A stretch of 64,000 nt of DNA from Candidatus Poribacteria bacterium (lineage in GTDB: Bacteria > Poribacteria > WGA-4E > WGA-3G): positions 192,001 to 256,000 of the forward strand of contig CAXXUA010000006.1 in the NCBI GenBank assembly GCA_963663765.2, read 5' to 3'. Numbering within the stretch: the stretch's first letter is position 1; the number at the start of each line of letters is the position of its first letter. The notes beneath the pieces were generated by a model. That model worked only from the letters and a program-made list of their open reading frames with translations. It did no database searches and was not told where the DNA came from. A program made the position numbers and the translations under genes. Shown here one piece after another: positions 7,746 to 23,700 of this stretch.

Positions 7746-9350
7746 CTACTCAGGAAATAAGCGATGGGCATCCACCAGATCCGCCACACAGAGCAACCGT
7801 TGATCCCCATTTTCAAACCACGGAAAGTTAAAACTGTATCCTTCCGGACACAGACGCTCTACCGCCTCCCACAATGCACGCCGTTGGGATCGATCTCTCC
7901 CATGCCGACAGCGGGCAAAGATGTCACAAATACGCCATTCCGCCTGACTTTCCGATGATGCCAAAGCGACTTCTTGTAGTTCGTGTAACTTACTGCGTGG
8001 AAACATAACCGCGTCCAGTTCTTGTATACTCGTCCGTAATGTCTCCAATTGGGAGCAAGACATCGGGCGAAGTGTGCGGCGCGCGTCGGTAAGTATATGA
8101 TAGGTATCTTCACGCACCTGTTTAAGGGCATAACTGTTTGCACTAGCCACAATATGAAAATCAATGCGAGCACGGTCTTGTTCAGAGTGTTGCTGAGTAT
8201 AGGTGTCCTGTCGTTTGGCGTTCTTCAACAGTTGCTCTGCTAAATCAAGTGCCAGATAGAATGGATAGTTGCTTCTCGCAACAGCAACACCACAGGAAAT
8301 CGTGAAACCCTGATCGCCAAGTCTATCGCGGAAAAATTGCCTCTCAGCATCTGGAAGGTCAGCGATTTTTGCTTTCGTCAAACGTTCAAACGCGTTTGTA
8401 ACCCTCAAGGCAAAATCAAGGGCGCGGTCAGCTGGCACTGCGACCAACAAATCATCACCACCTAAGAGTAAAATGTCGGCGGGGAGTGGCTCAGGATACA
8501 CCTGTTGTTCAAAAGCTTCTTGAACTTTGTTAATTTCTGATTTCAGAACCTCGTTGAGGGAACTGAAACATGCTTCTCGTATGCTTTCATCAACGATTCT
8601 GCTAAATTGGCGGAACGTCTCTCGTTGATCGATTGCCTGAACAAATTTCCCCATAGCGTTTCCATCAGCATAAACGACACCAAGATAACCGTTCCACGAG
8701 GATCGATCTCCGATCTCTGTGATACTCTGACATCGTAATTCCTGCCAATCTTCCTCTGCTAACCACGGTCCGGTACGGGCTAAATGCGCCATCCACCCGC
8801 TCCAAAGTCCATAGTGCCGTGTCCTACGTCCTTCTTCTGCCTTTTCATAACTCGATTTGGATAATATATCACCGTTTCGACCTATACAAGATGCTGGCAA
8901 ATCCGAAGCAGATTCACATTCCATCATGATTGGAATTAGCGAGCTACTCCGATGACAGGTTGCGAACTCACGTTGGCAGCGCAACTGAAAATGTGCCATT
9001 CGTGCTGCCTCCGAATAGGATGCGTCATCTTTAAATGGTGCAATACCGTAGACAACACCTACTTCACCGCCTGTCTGCTCACGGATATAGCGAGTCATGC
9101 TTTCACAGGCTGCTTTGATTGTTGTAGCATCTGACCTATGAACTAAGAACTGTGCTGACCCGCCATTGGCATAAATCTTGTCCACATCTCCTATACTGGG
9201 GTATTCGTTCAAACACTTTTCCATCTCGGATCGGTTCAGCCAATCTAACCGAGCACTTGCACCTCGTATCTCATTCAACGGATCAGTACCAAATACATAA
9301 TTCTTGATAGAAGGGATGTCAATTACAATGACAAATGATTCGTTGTTCAT
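7746..9350 (-). CDS. cas10: Cas10, no HD domain, intact cyclase palm
   Basis: IDIPSIKNYVF, EIRGAS, YANGG, YADGNAMG, LLLGGDDLL; 534 aa with no N-terminal HD domain. Confidence 0.95.
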   Translation of the reverse strand: MNNESFVIVIDIPSIKNYVFGTDPLNEIRGASARLDWLNRSEMEKCLNEYPSIGDVDKIYANGGSAQFLVHRSDATTIKAACESMTRYIREQTGGEVGVVYGIAPFKDDASYSEAARMAHFQLRCQREFATCHRSSSLIPIMMECESASDLPASCIGRNGDILSKSSYEKAEEGRRTRHYGLWSGWMAHLARTGPWLAEEDWQELRCQSITEIGDRSSWNGYLGVVYADGNAMGKFVQAIDQRETFRQFSRIVDESIREACFSSLNEVLKSEINKVQEAFEQQVYPEPLPADILLLGGDDLLVAVPADRALDFALRVTNAFERLTKAKIADLPDAERQFFRDRLGDQGFTISCGVAVARSNYPFYLALDLAEQLLKNAKRQDTYTQQHSEQDRARIDFHIVASANSYALKQVREDTYHILTDARRTLRPMSCSQLETLRTSIQELDAVMFPRSKLHELQEVALASSESQAEWRICDIFARCRHGRDRSQRRALWEAVERLCPEGYSFNFPWFENGDQRLLCVADLVDAHRLFPE

Positions 9351-11092
9351 GATGATAAATCCGTAGGCGTGTCAAGCCAGTCAAAATCACTTTTGACAAA
9401 CGGATTGTCTGCCTGCTCATCTGACGAGCGTCGATCAATGAGGACGAAACGCCTCACCGGTCTATCCAGTTTTTGTGCTTCTTCCACGAGTCGTTGAACA
9501 ACTACGCCCATGAGTGTTGTGCCACCAGTCATGTTAGCTACGACCACATCCGCATGCAATAAGTAGTGGAGTGCTTGCTTTGTTATTTCATTGATTTCAT
9601 TAAAGCCTCCTTGTGGATCGTCCATTTGAATTTGATGAACACAACCTGTAAAGTGAGCATGTTTGGCGGCTTCAGGAACACTGTTTGCTGAAGCATCTGA
9701 ACAGATAACAAGACAAGTATCGGCTTCAGCAACCTTTAATGCCGAAAACAGAACACCCGGTCGCGTCCCTTGTGGTGAAATAAGCATTTTACCGCCTCCG
9801 CCACCCAGTAATGGTATATCTATGCAATCTTTTTTTAATTGATTCCAAAAACACTGAACTTTTTCAAAAGATGAGGGTGGTTCTTCAAGTGCCTCTGTTC
9901 GCATCCCATGATGGTGTAAAGCATTTCGCAGTGTATTCGTCAGTTGATTCCAAAAGTTTCCGAATTCCTGCTGTTCCAATGTAATAGTTGACCGAAACTT
10001 ATTGCTTCTCGCAAACGCCCCGATAGCACCGAGCCGACGTTCATAGCACACTCGAACTTTGTTATTTAACCAGTTTTTATGTTCTTCAGTCTTTCCTGAC
10101 TTCCAAATCGCCCAAGAGACAACCCACTCCCGCATTAACCCTGTTGCGAGAGGGATTTGCCCGCGACCTAAATATAAATCAATCATACGAGCCTGACGCT
10201 CTAACTCATTCTTATCTAAATGAATGCTCTCTTTCCAGATACCATCTTTGCTTAGTGGTTCTTCGAATGCCGATTTCTTCGCTGCGTTAATAACCGTTTT
10301 AATCAGTTCAGTAAGTAGTGGCGGTAGACCGGGATTTTCTATGGCAGGTAGATCTTGGATCAAATTGATAAGTCTTTTACTCGCTTTTCCCATTTCCAGA
10401 GGCAACGCGGATTCGTAGGCAAATGCTTGTTTTTCAAGCGAATCAATGGAATGTTTGACCAGTTTCAGTTGCTGTGACTGTTCTTTTCCTGCTGCTTCCT
10501 CCCCATCCTTGAACAATCGTCGAGTTTGCTGATTCAACGTATCTGCCAACGGCTGGAGGCGGTCCGCGATGGGCTTTGTCGTTCCCTGATCTCGAAACAT
10601 CCGAACTGCATGGAACCACTCCGGCAATTCAAGCAATGGCTGCAGGTTAACGATAGGCTTCGGAGCATCTTTTGGTGTTCCTTCTATCATACCGTAGTAC
10701 GCACCACGAATCTTTACGTTACGGAGCGATGTGAGGTAGAGCACTAGGGCATAAAAGATAAAAGGGAAGTGACGGAATCCCTGCGTAACATCAAGCGTAA
10801 GATCCGCACCTTTTGGAATGCGATTCGCAACAGATTCAAGTATCTGATGAATTTCATCAGGACTATTTCCGTCAGGGATCTCAACTAATTCAGGACTAAA
10901 CTTGAGAATCCTACAAATTCCCGCACGAAAACGTTGCCACGTTTCACGCTTCGCACCTTCTGTAACCAAAGTGACAACATGATTCGGTAAAGCTGACTTT
11001 TCCAGAAACTGTACTAAAGCGAGAGGAGACAGATCTGCCTTAACAGTTTTCTCGTTCCACTCGTAGGTTGTTGGGATGGCTTTCATTCCCAA
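9347..11092 (-). CDS. csx1: Csx1/TM1812-like CARF-HEPN effector with a C-terminal second CARF-like domain; 5' end cut off by IS630
   Basis: LDVTQGFRHFP (DxTHG-like), HEPN RNALHH, C-terminal LISPQGTRPGVL...ANMTGGTTLM; N-terminal strand HILLTS lies across the IS. Confidence 0.85.
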   Translation of the reverse strand: MGMKAIPTTYEWNEKTVKADLSPLALVQFLEKSALPNHVVTLVTEGAKRETWQRFRAGICRILKFSPELVEIPDGNSPDEIHQILESVANRIPKGADLTLDVTQGFRHFPFIFYALVLYLTSLRNVKIRGAYYGMIEGTPKDAPKPIVNLQPLLELPEWFHAVRMFRDQGTTKPIADRLQPLADTLNQQTRRLFKDGEEAAGKEQSQQLKLVKHSIDSLEKQAFAYESALPLEMGKASKRLINLIQDLPAIENPGLPPLLTELIKTVINAAKKSAFEEPLSKDGIWKESIHLDKNELERQARMIDLYLGRGQIPLATGLMREWVVSWAIWKSGKTEEHKNWLNNKVRVCYERRLGAIGAFARSNKFRSTITLEQQEFGNFWNQLTNTLRNALHHHGMRTEALEEPPSSFEKVQCFWNQLKKDCIDIPLLGGGGGKMLISPQGTRPGVLFSALKVAEADTCLVICSDASANSVPEAAKHAHFTGCVHQIQMDDPQGGFNEINEITKQALHYLLHADVVVANMTGGTTLMGVVVQRLVEEAQKLDRPVRRFVLIDRRSSDEQADNPFVKSDFDWLDTPTDLSS

Positions 11093-11204
11093 ACTAGTAG
11101 ATAGTCCATACTAAAAGTTTGTATTTATTTTTTTGTTTCTTAGTATCTTGACAAACAAGAGTTTTTCTCTTATAGTATAGCAAAACTTAAGGAGGAACAC
11201 AACC

Positions 11205-11648
11205 TTGACTAAGAAATATGTTGTAAAACTCACTGATTCGGAGCGGCAGGAGTTGTTAGATTGTATAAACACAGGTAAAAAAGAGGCGTATAAGATAAGG
11301 AATGCTCATATTTTGCTGAAATCAGATGTCAATGGTCCCGGTTGGACTGATGGGAAAATAGCTGAAGCGTATGAGTGCACTGATAGGACAGTCGCGAAAG
11401 TGCGTAAGCGTTTTGCTGAAGGTGGTTTTTCTCGTGTCTTATTTCGTGCTAAGCGAGAGCATCCTCCCACACCTCGTAAACTTGATGGTGAAGCTGAAGC
11501 ACGCTTGATAGCACTGAGTTGTAGCGAACCTCCCGAAGGTGCTGCTAAATGGACTTTACGCCTACTTGCGTCAGAATTGGTAAGACTTGAAATCGTGGAA
11601 AGCATTTCTCCAGAAACGGTAAGACAGACACTAAAAAAAACGCTTTGA
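11205..11648 (+). CDS. IS630 transposase OrfA (HTH)
   Basis: KKYVVKLT..ER, PPEGAAKWTLRLLA; A8 run near 11633-11640 is a likely frameshift site into OrfB. Confidence 0.9.
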   Translation: MTKKYVVKLTDSERQELLDCINTGKKEAYKIRNAHILLKSDVNGPGWTDGKIAEAYECTDRTVAKVRKRFAEGGFSRVLFRAKREHPPTPRKLDGEAEARLIALSCSEPPEGAAKWTLRLLASELVRLEIVESISPETVRQTLKKTL

Positions 11649-12331
11649 AGCCGCACCTTCAGCAACAGTGGGTGATTCCCCCTGAAAAAGATGCTGAGTT
11701 TGTAAAGTCGATGGAAGAAGTGCTTGATCTTTACCAGAAACCTTTAGATACAGAAATACCTGTTGTGAACATGGACGAACAATCTGTCACGCTTAGGGAT
11801 GATGTTCGGGATCCGCATCCTGTGAAACCGGGGCAAGTCAAGCGTGTAGATAATGAGTATAAACGCAAAGGCACGGCAAATATCTTCCTATTCACAGAAG
11901 CATTATCGGGATGGAGGCGTGTGTCTGTTCGGACGCGCAGAAAGGCAGAGGATTGGGCAGAAGAAGTAAAAATACTATTGGATCAGGACTACTCATCAGC
12001 AAAAAGTGTGATTTTAGTTTGTGACAACCTGAATATACACAAACTTTCGACGCTCAATAAAGTGTTTGGAGATGAGGAAGCAAATAGGTTGCGTAAGCGT
12101 TTAGAAATCGTGCATACGCCAGTACATGGAAGTTGGTTGAATATAGCGGAAATAGAACTGAGTGTCCTTACGCGTCAATGTTTGTGTCGGCGTATCCCAG
12201 ATATAGAGACACTCCATAGAGAGACACAAGCCTGGCAAAAACGGCGAAATGCAGAGCAAAAGCAGGTAAACTGGCAATTTACAACGGACGATGCACGCGT
12301 ACGATTAAAACATCTATACCCGAACAATTAG
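11645..12331 (+). CDS. IS630 transposase OrfB (DDE)
   Basis: MDEQ, VCDNLNIH, HTPVHGSWLNIAEIE. Confidence 0.92.
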   Translation: MKPHLQQQWVIPPEKDAEFVKSMEEVLDLYQKPLDTEIPVVNMDEQSVTLRDDVRDPHPVKPGQVKRVDNEYKRKGTANIFLFTEALSGWRRVSVRTRRKAEDWAEEVKILLDQDYSSAKSVILVCDNLNIHKLSTLNKVFGDEEANRLRKRLEIVHTPVHGSWLNIAEIELSVLTRQCLCRRIPDIETLHRETQAWQKRRNAEQKQVNWQFTTDDARVRLKHLYPNN

Positions 12332-12345
12332 AATGGACTATCTAC

Positions 12346-12412
12346 TAGTCAGTAGAATATGGGGGGTATCTGATGGTTGGTAGGTTGTAGTCTCTATGAT
12401 GATTCTCTCCAA
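12346..12412 (-). pseudogene. Severed 5' fragment of the csx1-like gene
   Basis: Removing the IS and one TA restores the frame TTG-ERIIIETTTYQPSDTPHILLTS|LGMKAIPTTYEW; start codon uncertain. Confidence 0.8.
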
Positions 12413-14304: not shown

Positions 14305-16585
14305 TATTCAATTCCCTTCAAACGGGAAGGATTTCCGAACTAGTTAATGACTGGAATGATTATTATATCTTTGTTTGTAAGTTTCAATTCCCTTCAAACG
14401 GGAAGGACTTTCCGAACTTGTCAAAGACGTTACACCCGATGAGTTAAGTTTATCGTTTCAATTCCCTTCAAACGGGAAGGACTTTCCGAACTACATCGTA
14501 AAGAAGTGTCCAGCAAGGAAGAGTTTCAATTCCCTTCAAACGGGAAGGTCTTTCCGAACTCGGAGTTCATTGACATATATTTATCAGTTCTAACAGTTTC
14601 AATTCCCTTCAAACGGGAAGGTCTTTCCGAACGAACGGTTGCATTTTATCCTGATGCATGGAATAAAGTTTCAATTCCCTTCAAACGGGAAGGTCTTTCC
14701 GAACTATGGGATTACGAAGTTGCCTTAAACGGAACTGCGGAAACTCAGTTTCAATTCCCTTCAAACGGGAAGGACTTTCCGAACTATACCGTCTATATGT
14801 TATGAGATACGCATACAGGTAGTTTCAATTCCCTTCAAACGGGAAGGACTTTCCGAACTTATTTAGGCGAGACTCATATTGACTTAGGTGAGATAGAGTT
14901 TCAATTCCCTTCAAACGGGAAGGTCTTTCCGAACTCACCAAGCACACGTCAGCATTCGCCAAATTGATGATGTTTCAATTCCCTTCAAACGGGAAGGGCT
15001 TTCCGAACATGATTTCATAGAAGCAAGGATAAAAACCGATGAATAATGTTTCAATTCCCTTCAAACGGGAAGGGCTTTCCGAACGCTACGATGTGTCTCA
15101 CCCCGAAATGCAGGGGTACTACGAGTTTCAATTCCCTTCAAACGGGAAGGGCTTTCCGAACATTGCTTACAATAGCAATATACTGTTCAATCAAAAGTTT
15201 CAATTCCCTTCAAACGGGAAGGGCTTTCCGAACTCAGCGCGGAGATACAGTGGATTTTGCAAAGGCTTTTGAGTTTCAATTCCCTTCAAACGGGAAGGTC
15301 TTTCCGAACCTCTGCTTGCCTGCCCCACAACTCCAACGGGACGTAGTGGAGTTTCAATTCCCTTCAAACGGGAAGGTCTTTCCGAACTGTACAGGCAGAA
15401 CATATCTACGAAGATGATTGGCAGTTTCAATTCCCTTCAAACGGGAAGGACTTTCCGAACTGTACCAAAAAGAAATGCTTGATGTTGTAGAAGATCCCGT
15501 TTCAATTCCCTTCAAACGGGAAGGTCTTTCCGAACGCTATGTTCATTTTAGAGAACGCAGAAATAGAGGTGTGTTTCAATTCCCTTCAAACGGGAAGGTC
15601 TTTCCGAACAAATCCTCAACGCAGAAAACGAAGTTCAAAGCATACGGTTTCAATTCCCTTCAAACGGGAAGGTCTTTCCGAACGGAAAAGCACAAGGTAC
15701 CGTTAAAGTACTTTACAGCCAGTTTCAATTCCCTTCAAACGGGAAGGTCTTTCCGAACTTGAAAATCTGTTCTCAACTGTTGTGAAAGCATTTCTGAGTT
15801 TCAATTCCCTTCAAACGGGAAGGTCTTTCCGAACTTGAAAAAAAATATGACAGTGAGTCTCAGCGATGGAAGTTTCAATTCCCTTCAAACGGGAAGGTCT
15901 TTCCGAACGAAAAGAAACAGATTACAGCCGTGACCCGTTTTGTCTGGTTTCAATTCCCTTCAAACGGGAAGGTCTTTCCGAACTTAACACAGATAACAGA
16001 GGCATTTGAAAGTGGCGATATGGTTTCAATTCCCTTCAAACGGGAAGGTCTTTCCGAACTATACCCTTGCCTATTCAGCAGAAAGAAATGGACTTTGTTT
16101 CAATTCCCTTCAAACGGGAAGGTCTTTCCGAACTCCTGGACCAACACACACTTATTTCGGTTCTGAAACTTTGTTTCAATTCCCTTCAAACGGGAAGGTC
16201 TTTCCGAACTAGAATTAATTGGACATTCTGTTATGTTCGGAAACCGAAGTTTCAATTCCCTTCAAACGGGAAGGTCTTTCCGAACTTAGCAACAACATCG
16301 TCCCACGCATCACCCTCAATCAATAATAATGTTTCAATTCCCTTCAAACGGGAAGGTCTTTCCGAACACCCTATACTTGTCTCGTCAACGTCAGCGGGTA
16401 ACGTTTCAATTCCCTTCAAACGGGAAGGTCTTTCCGAACCAACCGACTCCTGAAGGACAACGTCAAAAAGAGCTTGGTTTCAATTCCCTTCAAACGGGAA
16501 GGTCTTTCCGAACGCAATTGCACAAGCAAATCGGACAAACGCCATTGAGTTTCAATTCCCTTCAAACGGGAAGGTCTTTCCGAAC
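14305..16585 (-). CRISPR. CRISPR array 2: 31 repeats, 30 spacers, transcribed leftward
   Basis: Repeat on + is GTTTCAATTCCCTTCAAACGGGAAGG(T/A/G)CTTTCCGAAC; degenerate terminal repeat at 14305 (trailer); leader on the right. Confidence 0.98.
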
Positions 16586-16854
16586 AGCACCCCTTGCGAA
16601 GCCAGTCACAGTGCGGTCTAAATTAGCCGAAACCAAACGCGACGAATTTTAGCCATTTTTTTTTGCCCCAAATTTGGTCAAATTGCCTCTAAACCCGCAT
16701 GAACACTGAACCTTACGCGATTTTTTGTGCAAACAGGCTTAGAATCCAGTCACCATCTATATTCACAGGCAATATTAAGTGTATCAACACGCGATTTGAA
16801 AATCGCGTTTGGTTTTTCTGCATAAAATATACATTAAATCTGAATAAAAGTCAA
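16586..16854 (-). promoter_or_regulatory. Leader of array 2 with promoter
   Basis: Inverted homologue of 18183-18449; TTGACT(16849-54)-17 bp-TATATT(16826-31) on the minus strand. Confidence 0.8.
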
Positions 16855-16950: not shown

Positions 16951-17943
16951 CTAAGTCCGAATGAGAAAAGGTTTGTATATTGCTTCTTTGCCTCTAAGCA
17001 TGCGTGCTAAATGTCTAACCTGAAGCTCAATACAACGAAGATAAGTTGTTTTCTCATTTTTTGTTGGGTGTTGAAACGTCTGCTGCATTCGCTCATAATA
17101 TCCGCCGAGGAAACTGTCCAACGCTTTCTTGGTAAAGCGAATACCTTTTTCTGTCTTCTGAAAGTCTTCCTGTTTTATCCTGTTGTTATTGACAAGTGTA
17201 AGGACATATCCATCTACGATGATTTGTCGGAATTCTTCCATCAGATCTGATGCTAATGCAGCGTGACCGTGTTTAGGTTGATGGAAATATCCACAATACG
17301 GGTCGAACCCGACGACGTTAATGAATGTGTAAACGTGGTTGTGTAGGAGCGTATAACCGAGTGAAAGCATGGCGTTTATTGGATCTGGTGATGGACGAAA
17401 TTGTCGGGTCGTAAACCCCCAATCGCGTGTGAGGAATTGTCTGAATGCGCGGTAATGTGCGACGGTGCCACTTCCTTCGTAACCGAGCAGTGAATCCAGA
17501 TTTTTAGCACGTTCAAGTTTTTCCAATGTTTGACGTATTGTGCTTGTTGCTGCCTTCACTTCAGCATTTTGCGAACGTTGTCGTTGAGAGAACCGGATAG
17601 CGTTGGTAAGTTTGCCATGGACAAAACATTTCGCTAATTCAAGACACTGTGGTGTGTCTTGTGCAACTGCATATTGATACTGTCGAAGGAGCGTGTCTTT
17701 AGCAAAAGGCGGTTGAAGTTTTCCTTTGTATTTTCCTTGTGAAGACAGAAATGAAACAGGTATATTTTTATGAAGTAAAAAACCCATCGTTTGAGTCGTA
17801 ATATGTCCATTACCAAAAATAACAACTTCGTCGACCTTGACGATTGGTATTTCTTGCAGCACATCCTGGTCTTTTTTAACGATGATACGATTTCCAGATT
17901 TATGGAGAACCGCTCCTTGCTGTGTGATATAGAGTATTGCCAT
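16951..17943 (-). CDS. cas1: Cas1 (no RT or Cas4 fusion)
   Basis: LYITQQGA, LLGYEG, DPINAMLSLGY, GYFH, LASDLMEEFR. Confidence 0.97.
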   Translation of the reverse strand: MAILYITQQGAVLHKSGNRIIVKKDQDVLQEIPIVKVDEVVIFGNGHITTQTMGFLLHKNIPVSFLSSQGKYKGKLQPPFAKDTLLRQYQYAVAQDTPQCLELAKCFVHGKLTNAIRFSQRQRSQNAEVKAATSTIRQTLEKLERAKNLDSLLGYEGSGTVAHYRAFRQFLTRDWGFTTRQFRPSPDPINAMLSLGYTLLHNHVYTFINVVGFDPYCGYFHQPKHGHAALASDLMEEFRQIIVDGYVLTLVNNNRIKQEDFQKTEKGIRFTKKALDSFLGGYYERMQQTFQHPTKNEKTTYLRCIELQVRHLARMLRGKEAIYKPFLIRT

Positions 17944-18182: not shown

Positions 18183-18449
18183 TTGACATTTTTGAGAACT
18201 TCATATAAACTATGCATATAAACCCAAACGCGAATTATTTTTAAGCGCGAATGTATACAAAAACACCTCTGAACACAGACAGGAACACGGTTTAGGACAC
18301 TTCTATTAAAAAAATCGCGTATGGTTCAATGTTCATGCGGGTTCAGAGGCAATTTGACGAATATTGGGGGGTTGAAAATGTGCCAAAAATCGTCGCGTAT
18401 GGTTTTGGCTAATTTAGCCCGCACTGTGACTGGCTTCCGAAGGGGTGCT
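18183..18449 (+). promoter_or_regulatory. Leader of array 3 with promoter
   Basis: TTGACA(18183)-17 bp-TAAACT(18206); proximal ~140 bp closely similar to the array 2 leader. Confidence 0.8.
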
Positions 18450-20869
18450 GTTCGGAAAGTCCTTCCCGTTTGAAGGGAATTGAAACGATACTGGGAACAA
18501 TACGATCGGGCACACAATTCCTACGTTCGGAAAGTCCTTCCCGTTTGAAGGGAATTGAAACTGAGATAAATCCTTACTCGTGTCCCGAACACCATTGTTC
18601 GGAAAGTCCTTCCCGTTTGAAGGGAATTGAAACTCGTAACTTGGAATGGTGCAAAAACAGGATAATCTTCGTTCGGAAAGTCCTTCCCGTTTGAAGGGAA
18701 TTGAAACTTGAGCTTCATCTACAGGCTGACGCAAAGGCAGAATTGAGTTCGGAAAGTCCTTCCCGTTTGAAGGGAATTGAAACTTCTGCTTTCGCTTCTG
18801 CAATTAACTCTGCTTTTTCTGTTCGGAAAGTCCTTCCCGTTTGAAGGGAATTGAAACTTGGGACCTAAGTATAAAAACGTCACGCTGCTGGGTTGGCAGT
18901 TCGGAAAGTCCTTCCCGTTTGAAGGGAATTGAAACTCAAACATATCCAGTCTTCATTAGAAGACAAATTCATATTCACAGAACAGTTCGGAAAGTCCTTC
19001 CCGTTTGAAGGGAATTGAAACTTAATGTTCCAGCAGATGATTGCCCATCTCCCCATTTTGTTCGGAAAGTCCTTCCCGTTTGAAGGGAATTGAAACATCG
19101 GTAATTTTGACGTATTCGGTTTTATCTGTGAAGTTCGGAAAGTCCTTCCCGTTTGAAGGGAATTGAAACTCGGTCTGCCAGTTCCCATGCATCAATGGTT
19201 TCTTCGTTCGGAAAGTCATTCCCGTTTGAAGGGAATTGAAACTTTATTCTGGCTTCCATACACTCATGGCAGCAAAGTTCGGAAAGTCCTTCCCGTTTGA
19301 AGGGAATTGAAACTTCTTTTAATGCAACTGATAGAGGTTGCAAGTCGTTCGGAAAGTCCTTCCCGTTTGAAGGGAATTGAAACTATGCCCATATAGCAGG
19401 ATTCTTTTCCTCGCGTTTAGTTCTGAAAGACCTTCCCGTTTGAAGGGAATTGAAACACGATGTCGCCAGTGTACGTGTAATCAACATTTGTGTTCGGAAA
19501 GTCATTCCCGTTTGAAGGGAATTGAAACACACAGACGCTGATTGCGTCTTGTACGTTATAGAATGGTTCTGAAAGTCATTCCCGTTTGAAGGGAATTGAA
19601 ACCCGACCTGCACCAGGGTTGCCTCCACCTGAATCACTTTCGGGTTCTGAAAGTCATTCCCGTTTGAAGGGAATTGAAACTCAGGCGGAAAACACGTTAT
19701 GCTATACTTCGTCATTATGCGTTCTGAAAGTCCTTCCCGTTTGAAGGGAATTGAAACTTCATAATTTTTTCATAGCCAGGCACATATTTCAGTTCTGAAA
19801 GTCCTTCCCGTTTGAAGGGAATTGAAACTCAACTCCATCGGGCGTGGTCCACGCACTGAGGCAGTTCTGAAAGTCCTTCCCGCTTGAAGGGAATTGAAAC
19901 AATGTTCTGTTTGGTGTTGCAGTTACGCCTACATGTAAAGTTCGGAAAGTCCTTCCCGTTTGAAGGGAATTGAAACCGTGCGAGTACCAACCCTGCTGCC
20001 CTATGATGCCCACCGAGTTCTGAAAGTCCTTCCCGTTTGAAGGGAATTGAAACAGGATATACTCATAGTCAGGATCAGGAACAATAGAGTTCGGAAAGTC
20101 CTTCCCGTTTGAAGGGAATTGAAACTTTTTTGAAAATCTATATCTGCTGTAGCACTTGGATCAGTTCGGAAAGTCCTTCCCGTTTGAAGGGAATTGAAAC
20201 TTTGTTTTCTCTTCGTCCGTAAACGCATTCGTGTCATTGTTCTGAAAGTCCTTCCCGTTTGAAGGGAATTGAAACGCAACTTCTGCCTGCCTGCCCCACA
20301 TTTCAAGGGGTACAAAGTTCGGAAAGTCCTTCCCGTTTGAAGGGAATTGAAACTTAGCTTCCGATAGTGTAATCGCTTTTTCAACTGGTGTTCTGAAAGT
20401 CCTTCCCGTTTGAAGGGAATTGAAACCTAACGGCAAATTCACCATACAGAATATCAATAAAGTGTTCTGAAAGTCCTTCCCGTTTGAAGGGAATTGAAAC
20501 TACTCCGTTTCTGCATAATGATCATTGTAAATATTACGAAAGTTCTGAAAGTCCTTCCCGTTTGAAGGGAATTGAAACTCATCAACTTCCACTGTAACAT
20601 CGTTCAGCTTCCAGTTCTGAAAGTCCTTCCCGTTTGAAGGGAATTGAAACAGTTTTGTCAATAACTGGATAGACATATCAGCAAAGTTCTGAAAGTCCTT
20701 CCCGTTTGAAGGGAATTGAAACTCGGTTGTTAAACTCAACAAAATATCGGGGTTTTCGTTCAGAAAGTCCTTCCCGTTTGAAGGGAATTGAAACATAATA
20801 CATACACAGTATTACATCCCGCCCCCCTGCAAGTTCTGAAAGACCTTCCCGTTTGAAGGGAATTGAATC
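18450..20869 (+). CRISPR. CRISPR array 3: 33 repeats, 32 spacers
   Basis: Repeat GTTC(G/T)GAAAGTCCTTCCCGTTTGAAGGGAATTGAAAC; degenerate last repeat at 20833-20869. Confidence 0.98.
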
Positions 20870-21070: not shown

Positions 21071-21739
21071 CAGGGTTATTCAGTTTTAAGAATCTATCGT
21101 TATGTCGGTTAACTTTGGGTTAAGATTAGTAATTTTATAGGATTTTTATGGTATTCTTGATTTTGGTCTGAAATAGGATTTTCAGTATTAGTAGATTATC
21201 AAGATATTTCTCATCAGATCCTATTCCAAAATAGGGCATAAACACATATCAAAAACCCTTGACGAGGTAAATCCTGAAAATCTGGTAATCCTGAAAATCC
21301 TGGTTCAGACAAAGAATGGGTTAACTCCCAAAAATAAGCTAACTCAAGGATCAACAACTGTGATAGAATTTACTCAATATATTAAAAACTGAATAACCCA
21401 GGATGAAACCAGGGTTATTCAGTTTTAAGAATCTATCGTTATTCCAGTTAACTTTGGGTTAAGATTAGTGATTATATAGGATTTTTATGGTATTCTTTAT
21501 TAGCGTCTGAACCAGGATTTTCAAGATTAGTAGATTATCAAGATTATCTCATCAAATCCTATTCCAAAAGTGAGCATAAACACATATCAAAAACCCTTGA
21601 CGAGGTAAATCCTGAAAATCTGGTAATCCTGAAAATCCTGGTTCAGACAAAGAATGGGTTAACACCCAAAAATAAGCTAACTCAAGGATTAACAAATGTG
21701 ATAGAATTTACTCAATAAATTGAAAACTGAATAACCCTG
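21071..21739. mobile_element. Tandem dimer of MITE family D (~330 bp units 21071-21401 and 21410-21739; TIR CAGGGTTATTCAGTTTT)
   Basis: Two near-identical non-coding units, each bounded by CAGGGTTATTCAGTTTT/AAAACTGAATAACCC with internal IR GTCTGAACCAGGATTTTC. Confidence 0.85.
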
Positions 21740-21822: not shown

Positions 21823-23700
21823 ATGAGAAACAAGAACTTCAATAGGAGGCGCACAATGCAAACCCCAACTTCTGCCCTTGAAGAAACCGGCATCGGTTCC
21901 ATCCACGTTGATCCAATTCCACCAACAGAAATAGATGATTCCCAACTCATCTACCACCAACTCTGTCCCGCTGACGATTTTGAGGAACTGGAAGGCAAAC
22001 CCTTCCATGTCAACGGCACGCATCTGGCTGTCTTCAAGAACAACGATAATTACTTTGCAGTTGACAACCGTTGTCCACACATGGGCTATCCAATGTCTAA
22101 AGGAAGTATTCGTGACGGTGTCCTAATCTGTCACTGGCATCACTGGGAATTTGACCTCAGATCCGGTGCCTGTTTCCTCGCTTCAGGGGATGATCTGAAA
22201 GCATTTCCGGTTGAAGTCCGAGAGGACGGTTATCTATACGTTGGATTAGCAAAAGGTGAAAGAGAAGCAGCAAAACAACGTGTCATCGCAAACGGCAAAC
22301 GTGCATTAGAGCGCGGACTAAAAGACCGAAGCACATTCTTCATTGCAAAAGCAGTTACTGCACTTCGTGACGCAGGTGCGCCACCAGCAGAGATTATTCA
22401 TCAGGGACTCCACTACGGTGCACACAAAAGCAGTGATGGTTGGTCGTCAGGTGTGGCAATCCTTACACTCGCTGCGAACATGTGGGACGATGTCGACCCA
22501 AATGACCATAATCTGTTCCTTGTCCACGGATTAAGCCAGATCAGCCGAAGAACTTCAGGAAGCGCAAGACCCTATCGCGCACCATTTCCACGAGTCAAAG
22601 AGGAGCACGACCTTGAAACACTGAAACGTTGGTTCCGTTATTTTATCAATAAACGCCACAGAGGTGCAGCAGAACGTATTCTACTCACACTAAATGACAG
22701 AGGTTTTGACAAATCTATCATCGCAGACTTCATTTACACTGCAGCAACCGACTATTACTTCACTGGTGACGGACACGCAGTTGATTTTGCAAATAAGATG
22801 TTTGAAGCATTGGAATATATTAACTGGGAAGAATCACACGAAATCTTGAGACCAATCGTCGTGGATTTGGTCAGTAGAACACGGCATGAGGAAACTTCAA
22901 GATGGGCAGACGCTGTACCTGTCCTTAGACCTGTGTTTAAGAGGATTGAGAGTATTTGGGAAGACAATCAAAATAACGAAGCAGAACTGGATATATCGGC
23001 ATTCTCACAAACACTGCTCGCAGACGACTTTGAACCCACAGTCGCCATAGTTGAGGAAGCACTCCGTAGCGGCGTCAAACCAACTGACATCTGCCGCGCA
23101 ATGACCTATGCATCAGCAGTGCGCACTGCACGATTCCATCTCAAAAACGAAGGTGACTGGCACGATGTCGCTAACATATACTCTTATGCACACGCACTTT
23201 ACAAAGCATTTCAATATGCACCAAGCGCAGATATGCTACGCGGTATATTCCACGGTGTGGTGTTCTTAGCATACATGCGTTGGTTGAACATGCCTGCTGC
23301 CCGTGTCCCTAAACCAGGGCAACGAATCCCAGATGAAACTTACACCTCACCAAAGAAAATGTTAGAACGTCTTCAAGAATTCGCTGACTTCCAAAAAGTC
23401 TATGAAGCAGAGATTTTGGTAAATCAGTATCTTGAAGAAGGACATGACGTTGATGCACTCAAGCAAACGCTTGCACATATCTTACTCCGTGAAGACGCTG
23501 AACTCCACATGTTCCAAGTGCTTGAAGTCGCCTTCAGACATTACGACCTGTCAGATGACTTTGAAGAACAACGCATGCATCTGTTGGCAGCGACACGTTA
23601 CATCACAGCACAAAAACTGATGAAGAACATCCTGTGGTCCACCGAAAACGCAGAACGACTCGCGCGCGGTGAACTACTCAGCGAACGCGACGATGACTAA
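21823..23700 (+). CDS. Rieske [2Fe-2S] domain fused to a large helical domain (start possibly ATG 21856)
   Basis: NRCPHMGYP...CHWHHWEFDL Rieske motif; AGGAGG before MQTPT. Confidence 0.85.
   Translation: MRNKNFNRRRTMQTPTSALEETGIGSIHVDPIPPTEIDDSQLIYHQLCPADDFEELEGKPFHVNGTHLAVFKNNDNYFAVDNRCPHMGYPMSKGSIRDGVLICHWHHWEFDLRSGACFLASGDDLKAFPVEVREDGYLYVGLAKGEREAAKQRVIANGKRALERGLKDRSTFFIAKAVTALRDAGAPPAEIIHQGLHYGAHKSSDGWSSGVAILTLAANMWDDVDPNDHNLFLVHGLSQISRRTSGSARPYRAPFPRVKEEHDLETLKRWFRYFINKRHRGAAERILLTLNDRGFDKSIIADFIYTAATDYYFTGDGHAVDFANKMFEALEYINWEESHEILRPIVVDLVSRTRHEETSRWADAVPVLRPVFKRIESIWEDNQNNEAELDISAFSQTLLADDFEPTVAIVEEALRSGVKPTDICRAMTYASAVRTARFHLKNEGDWHDVANIYSYAHALYKAFQYAPSADMLRGIFHGVVFLAYMRWLNMPAARVPKPGQRIPDETYTSPKKMLERLQEFADFQKVYEAEILVNQYLEEGHDVDALKQTLAHILLREDAELHMFQVLEVAFRHYDLSDDFEEQRMHLLAATRYITAQKLMKNILWSTENAERLARGELLSERDDD

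Follow-up and report, generated by a model that had tools for sequence, protein, structure and literature searches.

An IS630-interrupted CARF-HEPN-CARF csx1 gene in a type III-D CRISPR locus of Poribacteria, and a candidate signal-quenching role for its C-terminal CARF domain

The window analysed in this work is a stretch of 64,000 nucleotides from Candidatus Poribacteria bacterium (assembly GCA_963663765.2, contig CAXXUA010000006.1, positions 192,001 to 256,000), which contains a csx1 gene whose product carries a second CARF domain at its C-terminus. The 3′ part of the gene (9347..11092, minus strand) is a 581-aa open reading frame (ORF), of 581 codons and a stop, that lacks the native start, the promoter-proximal region and strand β1 of the N-terminal CARF. 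It encodes, in order and all on the minus strand, a CARF sensor of the TM1812/Csx1 type (residues 1 to ~170; 10583..11092) with the motif D101-V-T-Q-G-F-R107-H108; a helical (HTH-like) region followed by the HEPN RNase (residues ~171-429; 9806..10582), with the catalytic R389-N-A-L-H-H394 at 9911-9928; a Gly5 linker (residues 430-434; 9791..9805); and the C-terminal CARF, here C-CARF, of 146 aa from M436 (residues 436-581; 9350..9787). The latter includes motif-I, G442-T-R-P-G446 (9755-9769), motif-II, T522-G-G-T-T526 (9515-9529), and an invariant D553-R-R555 (9428-9436). This C-terminal stretch, beginning with M436 (9787), reads MLISPQGTRPGVLFSAL...VANMTGGTTLMG. The initial annotation of the window had listed the ORF with DVTQGFRH (residues 101-108), RNALHH, GGGGG and the C-terminal stretch, and all of them are present as described. 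The csx1-CARF gene occurs in a single copy in the 6.35-Mb genome.

The order CARF, HEPN, CARF, also proposed in that annotation, is borne out by profile searches. NCBIfam TIGR02221 (cas_TM1812) covers residues 69-179 with 86.1 bits against a cut-off of 76.25, and the PADLOC model PDLC01840, 'CARF2--CARF_HEPN_CARF', matches residues 2-574 over profile positions 12-544 of 547 (E = 1.7e-134). Taken by themselves, the final 146 residues align with the C-terminal ~135 positions of each of the three PADLOC models of this kind (E from 9e-36 to 4e-28). CARF matches in Pfam fell below threshold (CARF_Card1: E = 0.053, 14 bits, cut-off 24.6). Across 138 aligned homologues, R389 and H394 of the HEPN domain are invariant and N390 is kept in 136; D101, T103, G105, R107 and H108 of the N-terminal CARF are at least 90% conserved, and the linker region is Gly-rich in most of these proteins. 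The AlphaFold2 (AF2) model of the whole chain (pLDDT 94.4, pTM 0.88) is all-helical at residues ~171-429. Its best Foldseek match is Csx1-Crn2 (8y7g; E = 9e-12, TMq 0.50), followed by SisCsx1 (6qzt; E = 1.2e-8), and the best PDB sequence match of the N-terminal CARF is the CARF of the Marinitoga Csx1-Crn2 (8y75/8y7g; E = 0.004).

Since a PADLOC-DB model matches the whole chain, the architecture is real and already catalogued. Membership in the CARF-HEPN-CARF Csx1 family is nearly certain, and the gene, itself defective, is a new example of a known design, identical in architecture to CARF2--CARF_HEPN_CARF and differing from it by the 5′ truncation that an insertion sequence (IS) of the IS630 family has caused. 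The names of the three models (PDLC01838-01840) presumably go back to the CARF classification published by Makarova et al. 2020.

The IS630-family element has 1249 bp (11097..12345, plus strand) and was delimited by a transposase model, its inverted ends and the TA duplication. The transposase lies in two overlapping frames, 11205-11648 and 11645-12331; the second scores 130 bits and the first 70 bits with NF033545 (transpos_IS630, cut-off 100). The element ends in perfect terminal inverted repeats of 13 bp, and the duplicated TA is found at 11095-96 and 12346-47. Because 12 full-length copies with 97-100% identity occur in the same genome, besides one disrupted copy in two pieces, the element appears to have been recently active. 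A run of eight A at the overlap of the two transposase frames may represent a programmed frameshift site.

Past the element, the csx1 frame resumes at 12412-12347 with the 22-23 first codons of the gene, which read LERIIIETTTYQPSDTPHILLT. This 5′ remnant (12346..12412, minus strand), recognised by its translation and by intact homologues, consists of a TTG codon (12412-12410), codons for ERIIIETTTYQPSDTPHILLT and the first base of a split Ser codon; homologues without the insertion read ...IIIETTTYQPSDAPHILLTSLGMKAIP at this place, and ...KLERIIIETTTYQPSDAPHILLTSLGMKAIPTTY across the junction. A stop codon stands just upstream of the TTG, which we infer to be the csx1 start codon. The remnant encodes the CARF strand β1 (HILLT). 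Since the frame resumes beyond the element and intact homologues read through the junction, IS630 cuts csx1 inside the first β-strand of the sensor CARF, after ~23 codons. The break, at which the initial annotation had hinted in speaking of an IS-repaired protein, is nearly certain. The csx1 product in this strain, if made at all, would lack β1 of the sensor and is probably non-functional.

A gene in this state could be an annotation artefact or no more than a decaying remnant, its C-terminal domain being under no selection in this genome, as is suggested by the interruption by an element with 12 near-identical copies and by a remaining frame devoid of its native 5′ end. We regard this as improbable, given that the remaining 581 codons contain no further stop or frameshift, that they are 85-88% identical over the full length to several homologues, and that the family as a whole is clearly conserved. 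From the near-identical IS copies, the uninterrupted 581 codons and the identity of up to 88% to homologues it follows that the insertion is recent.

That the C-terminal domain is a CARF is nearly certain. Its AF2 model (147 representative sequences; pLDDT 96.4, pTM 0.90) is six-stranded and Rossmann-like, in the order β1-α1-β2-α2-β3-α3-β4-α4-β5-β6, with T522-G-G after β4. Foldseek returned 74 PDB matches at E ≤ 0.001, the best of which are all CARF: TtCsm6 (E = 2.4e-7, TMq 0.71), then Can2, Csa3, Crn1 Sso2081 (E = 7.7e-6) and Cam1. The first 22 rows of an all-against-all comparison in VIA-align were likewise all CARF, among them Can2 8bao (Z 14.2, root-mean-square deviation 2.4 Å over 120 residues), Can2 8q3y (Z 14.2), Card1 (Z 13.1), TtCsm6 (Z 12.8), VC1899 (Z 12.2), the second CARF of Can1 (Z 12.1) and Crn1 Sso2081 (Z 11.4). 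A profile of 22 short family members, compared with PDB sequences, matched Can2 8bao (E = 5e-6), Can1 (E = 0.002) and Card1 (E = 0.17). The initial annotation had named a C-terminal domain that does not fold as CARF as a refutation of its proposal; the domain proved to be a genuine CARF. Its likeness to the 'Crn1/Csx14 type' was not sustained, Can2, Card1 and Can1 being closer than Crn1. The distinction that it drew from the DUF1874/Crn2 module of Csx1-Crn2 stands, the domain here being a six-stranded CARF that matches no Crn2 model.

Other identities were considered for the domain. Csx14/NE0113, prompted by the 'SPxGxxPG' look of motif-I, gave no NCBIfam or Pfam match. Csx15 was rejected on a different topology and the lack of a catalytic His, by the preprint's description only (10.64898/2026.10.26.761840). 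The models of Crn2/DUF1874, Crn3/Csx3, Csx16, Csx20, Csx15 and Crn4 in PADLOC, Pfam and NCBIfam did not match the domain at E ≤ 1, in a search with a positive control for Csx3 only, and no Pfam or NCBIfam model reached threshold on the domain or on its stand-alone forms. A Foldseek search of BFVD for a viral counterpart gave 0 matches at E ≤ 0.001. The nearest clusters in the ESM Atlas are 'hypothetical proteins' of 140-166 aa, a minority with CARF labels, which we take as a lead only. A two-copy complex prediction of the domain scored 0.37, the mark being 0.42, a value that bears on dimerisation in neither direction.

Of 7996 candidates that were scored against the full-length protein, 399 proved to be homologues at E ≤ 1e-3. 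Identity is 59-100% in the 120 that were listed, and 119 of these align over 98% or more of the query. For the C-domain alone there are 438 clusters (50% identity) at E ≤ 1e-3 and 318 at E ≤ 1e-10; it is C-terminal in the 98 proteins of 517-638 aa found among 150 listed clusters. When one genome per species was scanned, 103 relatives came up, and 80 loci were kept: 66 in which the fused gene encodes 540 aa or more, 7 cut by contig ends and 7 with short forms. Their source metagenome-assembled genomes are labelled Poribacteria, Binatia, Pseudomonadales, Dehalococcoidia, Acidimicrobiia, Planctomycetota, Acidobacteriota, Gemmatimonadota, Latescibacterota and Cyanobium, among others. The fused gene is usually followed by a cmr (type III-B) operon. 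Seven loci considered as stand-alone (L042, L056, L068, L069, L075, L080 and L083) were dropped, and none of them is counted below. In at least L042, L056, L069, L075 and L083 the upstream frame starts with a Csx1 N-terminus, so these are frameshift-split fused genes or assembly errors. A few fused homologues are 100-200 aa longer, namely L035 and L057 (691 aa), L037 (778 aa) and L094 (791 aa), which suggests added N-terminal domains or mis-called starts.

The same domain also occurs as an independent gene. In the phylum Poribacteria it is present in 18 of 176 genomes, with 15 fused copies in 14 genomes and stand-alone genes in the other four; the latter encode 143-167 aa from their own start codons. 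Two of them (L014, L015) lie in type III-A loci, 15-18 bp after a plain Csx1 (436 or 414 aa), a third (L017) directly follows a Can2-type nuclease, itself cut by the contig end, and the fourth (L016) is the first gene of a cmr operon in which a CARF1-like protein of 207 aa is encoded as well. A scan of metagenomes added 46 loci: 23 complete ORFs of 140-172 aa and one of 193 aa, 11 complete fused genes, 10 cut by contig ends and one fragment.

Neighbours were listed for 19 stand-alone loci, and PADLOC was run on 46 of the 80 listed neighbour ORFs; L102, whose gene order is that of L101, was left out, so that 18 loci were scanned. CRISPR-Cas neighbours at E ≤ 1e-8 were found in 12 of them. In L132 and L139 the gene immediately upstream of the stand-alone one encodes Csx1, which in L122 is found at a distance of two genes; in L100 the upstream neighbour encodes a 294-aa Can2-type protein. 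Genes of cmr or III-D type are among the neighbours in L099, L101, L118, L119, L120 and L130, CARF5 proteins are encoded in L099 and L103, and type I-B cas8b follows downstream in five scanned loci. A conserved trio heads the cmr operon in L016 (2870-4359) and L101 (1236-2725): the stand-alone CARF, a 288-aa protein that belongs to no PADLOC family, and the 207-aa CARF1-like protein.

A tree of the domain was built from 136 rows (31 stand-alone, 105 fused; four identical rows merged), for which proteins of 176-539 aa and any truncated by a contig end were set aside. Stand-alone forms are grouped in two clades, of 13 rows and of 6 rows (98% support), with further singletons inside the fused clade. 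The fewest changes between the fused and stand-alone states are 12, of which well-supported branches force at least three. The stand-alone forms keep the invariant C-domain residues of the fused forms. Loci L104, L106, L107, L109, L110 and L111 form a tight stand-alone subclade with 98% support.

From these observations we propose that the gene is an IS-inactivated CARF-HEPN-CARF csx1 whose C-terminal CARF lowers the level of cyclic oligoadenylate (cOA) in intact relatives, and we give this explanation as a whole a probability of about 55%. In such relatives the Cas10 cyclase would make cOA, most probably cA4; the dimer of the N-terminal TM1812-type CARF would bind it and allosterically switch on the HEPN RNase (R389/H394); and the C-terminal CARF would bind cOA as well, as a second and autonomous module, and so reduce the signal that reaches the sensor, either by cleavage in a non-canonical site (G-x-S/T/R, TGGTT, D553/R555/Q560) or by sequestration. 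The outcome would be a self-limiting RNase, as in Csx1-Crn2. For the C-terminal CARF as an autonomous signal-quenching module the odds are roughly one in two; cleavage of cOA is somewhat less likely than quenching overall, and sequestration accounts for the remainder. The identity of the ligand, its binding by the C-CARF, the choice between cleavage and sequestration and the oligomeric arrangement are all inferred here. A ring-nuclease reading of the domain is plausible, and it is reasonable to treat the domain family as candidate ring nucleases or cOA sponges. Tentatively, the C-CARF and its stand-alone relatives of 140-170 aa could form a widespread CARF-fold family of ring nucleases, with a site composed, in place of the Crn1 pair G-T-S / G-R-K, of G-x-S/T/R behind β1, TGGTT behind β4 and D-R-R...Q behind β5, that would serve several cA4 effectors (Csx1, Can2), fused or in trans.

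The proposal is based first on the stand-alone genes. A CARF of ~145 aa without an output domain, found beside effectors with differing output domains, can act only on a shared ligand or a shared partner, and its distribution is that seen for ring nucleases. The homologues that stand alone in type III loci lend independent backing, by comparison, to the idea of a putative off-switch. Second, the C-terminal slot of Csx1 is filled in sister PADLOC models by other modules (CARF2--CARF_HEPN_CSX3, _CSX16, _CSX20 and _Unk_f1, the last being Crn4), and these partners are reported as known or demonstrated ring nucleases (PMC8284326; PMC12830947; 10.64898/2026.10.26.761840). Crn2 and Csx15 fill the same slot in published fusions (PMC11317161; 10.64898/2026.10.26.761840). 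Third, PADLOC recognised no ring-nuclease family, with a control for Csx3 only, among 132 small ORFs (70-260 aa, within ±6 kb) around 33 of the 66 fused loci, every second locus being taken. These ORFs yielded only Cmr5, Cmr6, Csm2, Cas2, Cas3 fragments and one HTH/RmrA-like protein; in the control, PADLOC detected canonical and divergent Csx3. Fourth, at the motif-I position equivalent to Ser11 of Crn1, 79 of the 147 representatives have Ser or Thr and all nine aligned stand-alone forms have Ser. The N-terminal sensor CARF has no conserved Ser/Thr at that position (R/N/Q/K in 138 homologues) and so, by the rule in PMC10018336, looks non-degrading.

Several points weigh against this proposal. 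By fold and by profile, the nearest relatives of the domain are the sensor CARFs of Can2, Card1 and Can1, which are reported to bind cA4 without cleaving it (PMC10018336; PMC9704534). The signature of Crn1 ring nucleases is described as G9-T10-S11 in motif-I and G104-R105-K106 in motif-II (PMC10018336). Here motif-I is G442-T443-R444, with Arg at the position of Ser11 in Crn1, as in 41 of the 147 representatives. At this position the other residues among the representatives include Ser in 57, Thr in 22 and Ala in 8. The G-R-K of motif-II is absent, being replaced by an invariant or nearly invariant T-G-G-T-T without a basic residue, and the Lys kept by the non-degrading Can2 (K99) aligns with T526.

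The gene neighbourhoods also count in part against the proposal. In 6 of the 18 scanned stand-alone loci, those of the subclade of L104, L106, L107, L109, L110 and L111, there is no CRISPR neighbour at E ≤ 1e-8; within three genes no recognisable CRISPR or defence neighbour was seen, except an RmrA-like ORF in L104. These genes may have left CRISPR loci or may ride on mobile elements. The negative result for the 132 small ORFs covers ±6 kb only and had no positive control for Csx16, Csx20, Csx15, Crn1 and Crn2. Among the 15 fused loci of the phylum there are two (G041 and G143; PADLOC Csx3, E = 4e-26 and 7e-15) in which the gene immediately upstream of csx1-CARF belongs to the csx3 family, and a degraded csx3 copy, split over two frames, occupies the same position in G170 (L146). 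Because csx3 adjoins the fused gene in these loci, a separate ring nuclease can coexist with the C-CARF, in a minority of loci. Finally, our literature search found no biochemical paper on a CARF-HEPN-CARF Csx1; it did not cover Makarova et al. 2020, which may assign a role. The initial annotation had called the component under-described, and this holds insofar as we found no paper testing the architecture, but not with regard to its cataloguing, three named PADLOC-DB models being in existence.

Csx3 itself was further searched in the phylum. The Pfam search was positive in 13 of the 176 genomes; PF09652 (Csx16) gave 0 of 176, the control genomes also giving 0. The Csx3-family protein of these loci is divergent and has 109-121 aa, or 168 aa in L145 if counted from its first in-frame start (PADLOC Csx3, E from 7e-15 to 9e-27); its genes lie at 2504-2869 in L144, 1703-2209 in L145, 2253-2594 in L147 and 2468-2797 in L148. 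It is encoded immediately before csx1-CARF in G041 and G143, and immediately before cmr1 in related Poribacteria genomes. A search with a local profile built from these proteins brought up no other copy, either in the window or in the other loci examined.

The kinship with the pure sensor CARFs of Can2, Card1 and Can1, the missing basic residues of motif-II and the G-T-R of motif-I in this protein would also fit a C-CARF that works as a second sensor, binding the same or a different cOA and acting allosterically on HEPN as co-activator, AND/OR gate or inhibitor, without removing the signal. The compact AF2 model of the whole chain (pTM 0.88) predicts that the C-domain packs on the rest, and deletion of the C-terminal domain of Csx1-Crn2 is reported to cut its RNase activity more than 10-fold (PMC11317161), so C-terminal modules can affect HEPN. 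Allostery in cis leaves unexplained, however, the stand-alone forms of 140-172 aa beside Can2 PD-(D/E)xK or cmr genes, and the fused and stand-alone states have interconverted at least three times. We therefore hold a second sensor to be unlikely, although less so than a mere remnant.

A further reading is structural. The motif-II Lys, which binds ligand in Can2/Card1 and in Crn1, is absent from the C-CARF, and the domain might no longer bind nucleotide at all; its task would then be to join Csx1 dimers in larger assemblies and thereby to stabilise the HEPN site. In the account of Csx1-Crn2 in PMC11317161, the C-terminal domains stand ~45 Å apart in one dimer and pair with those of a second dimer, and loss of the tetramer destabilises HEPN. 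In the C-CARF, T522, G523, G524 and D553 are invariant in the 147 representatives, as are S465, R555, Q560 and P564. G442, G446, T522-G-G-T-T526, D553 and R555 are invariant in the loops after β1, β4 and β5, which are the ligand positions of CARF domains; their conservation argues for a pocket rather than an interface alone. The same residues are kept in the stand-alone forms. A purely structural module is accordingly a poor candidate, about as improbable as a gene without selection. As regards the missing positive charge, D553-R-R555 sits just after β5 in the AF2 model and, by Rossmann topology, could lie at the ligand face and supply it.

The proposed quenching module can be compared with known systems. 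The best structural match of the whole chain is Csx1-Crn2 of Marinitoga (PDB 8y6z, 8y7g; Samolygo 2020; Zhang 2024, PMC11317161), described with the same order of CARF, helical region, HEPN and a C-terminal module that binds cA4 (PMC11317161). In the protein described here this module is a Rossmann CARF of six strands, in which no His is conserved. The closest fold is that of the Can2, Card1 and Can1 CARFs (DUF1887/CARF4; PDB 8bao, 8q3y, 6wxw, 6sce), which also provide the only significant match of the profile to PDB sequences (8bao); these are N-terminal sensors on PD-(D/E)xK nucleases and keep the motif-II Lys (K99/K102), while the CARF here either follows a complete Csx1 or forms a protein by itself, is followed by no nuclease domain and has Thr for Lys. 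Crn1 (Sso2081, Sis0455, Sso1393) resembles the stand-alone relatives in being a small CARF-only protein of type III loci with a G-x-S motif-I. It differs in the motif-II G-R-K, which the family lacks, and a Tyr comparable to Tyr133 is not evident among the positions that the family conserves. PMC8284326 describes Crn1 as restricted to Crenarchaeota, unlike the C-CARF family, which is found in many bacterial phyla.

The same logic, a cOA-quenching module C-terminal to a CARF-HEPN RNase, is described for the Csx1-Csx15, Csx1-Csx3, Csx1-Csx16, Csx1-Csx20 and Csx1/Csm6-2-Crn4 fusions. Their modules differ from the C-CARF in fold and catalytic residues; Csx15, for example, is reported as five-stranded with an essential His8 (10.64898/2026.10.26.761840). 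A second CARF after HEPN in one chain is likewise described in Csm6-2 (CARF-HEPN-CARF-HEPN; Hoikkala 2024, PMC11229360), but as a fused pseudo-dimer of ~795 aa that contains two HEPN domains and responds to cA6 (PMC11229360), in contrast to the one HEPN and the terminal CARF found here.

Type III CRISPR immunity hinges on the duration of the cOA alarm. Among loci whose single known effector is Csx1, a known ring nuclease is reported in 34% (10.1101/2024.09.24.614671). The C-CARF family comprises 438 clusters at 50% identity; it is spread over many phyla of bacteria, either as part of Csx1 or as a separate protein next to Csx1, Can2 or cmr genes. If its members degrade or sequester cOA, part of the gap left by missing ring nucleases in Csx1 loci would be accounted for. 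If so, the two-motif rule that separates degrading from non-degrading CARFs would also be incomplete.

In the window, csx1 is the first gene of a minus-strand type III-D operon. It is followed by the gene for Cas10 (7746-9350, minus strand), of 534 aa, with no HD domain and an intact GGDD cyclase motif. The further genes of the operon encode a Csx7-like RAMP, Csx10, a Csm2-like small subunit, two Csx7 proteins, Csx19 and a TIGR03986 RAMP. On the opposite side of csx1 are cas6 and cas2, and then two CRISPR arrays (14455-16585 and 18524-20795) that share the 37-nt repeat GTTTCAATTCCCTTCAAACGGGAAGGTCTTTCCGAAC in opposite orientations, with cas1 (16951-17943) between them. No known ring nuclease or other CARF/SAVED effector was recognised among the ORFs scanned in 1-20400. 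Since the sole effector for cOA that was recognised at this HD-less III-D locus has been disrupted by a recently active IS, immunity by cOA signalling is probably disabled in this strain.

Two further observations concern the surroundings of the arrays. The listed ORFs 15046-16652 and 18414-20384 fall within the CRISPR arrays and are probably not genes. Beyond the second array, a unit of 338 bp occurs twice in tandem at 21071-21737, with 92% identity between the copies, just upstream of a 625-aa ORF (21823-23700).

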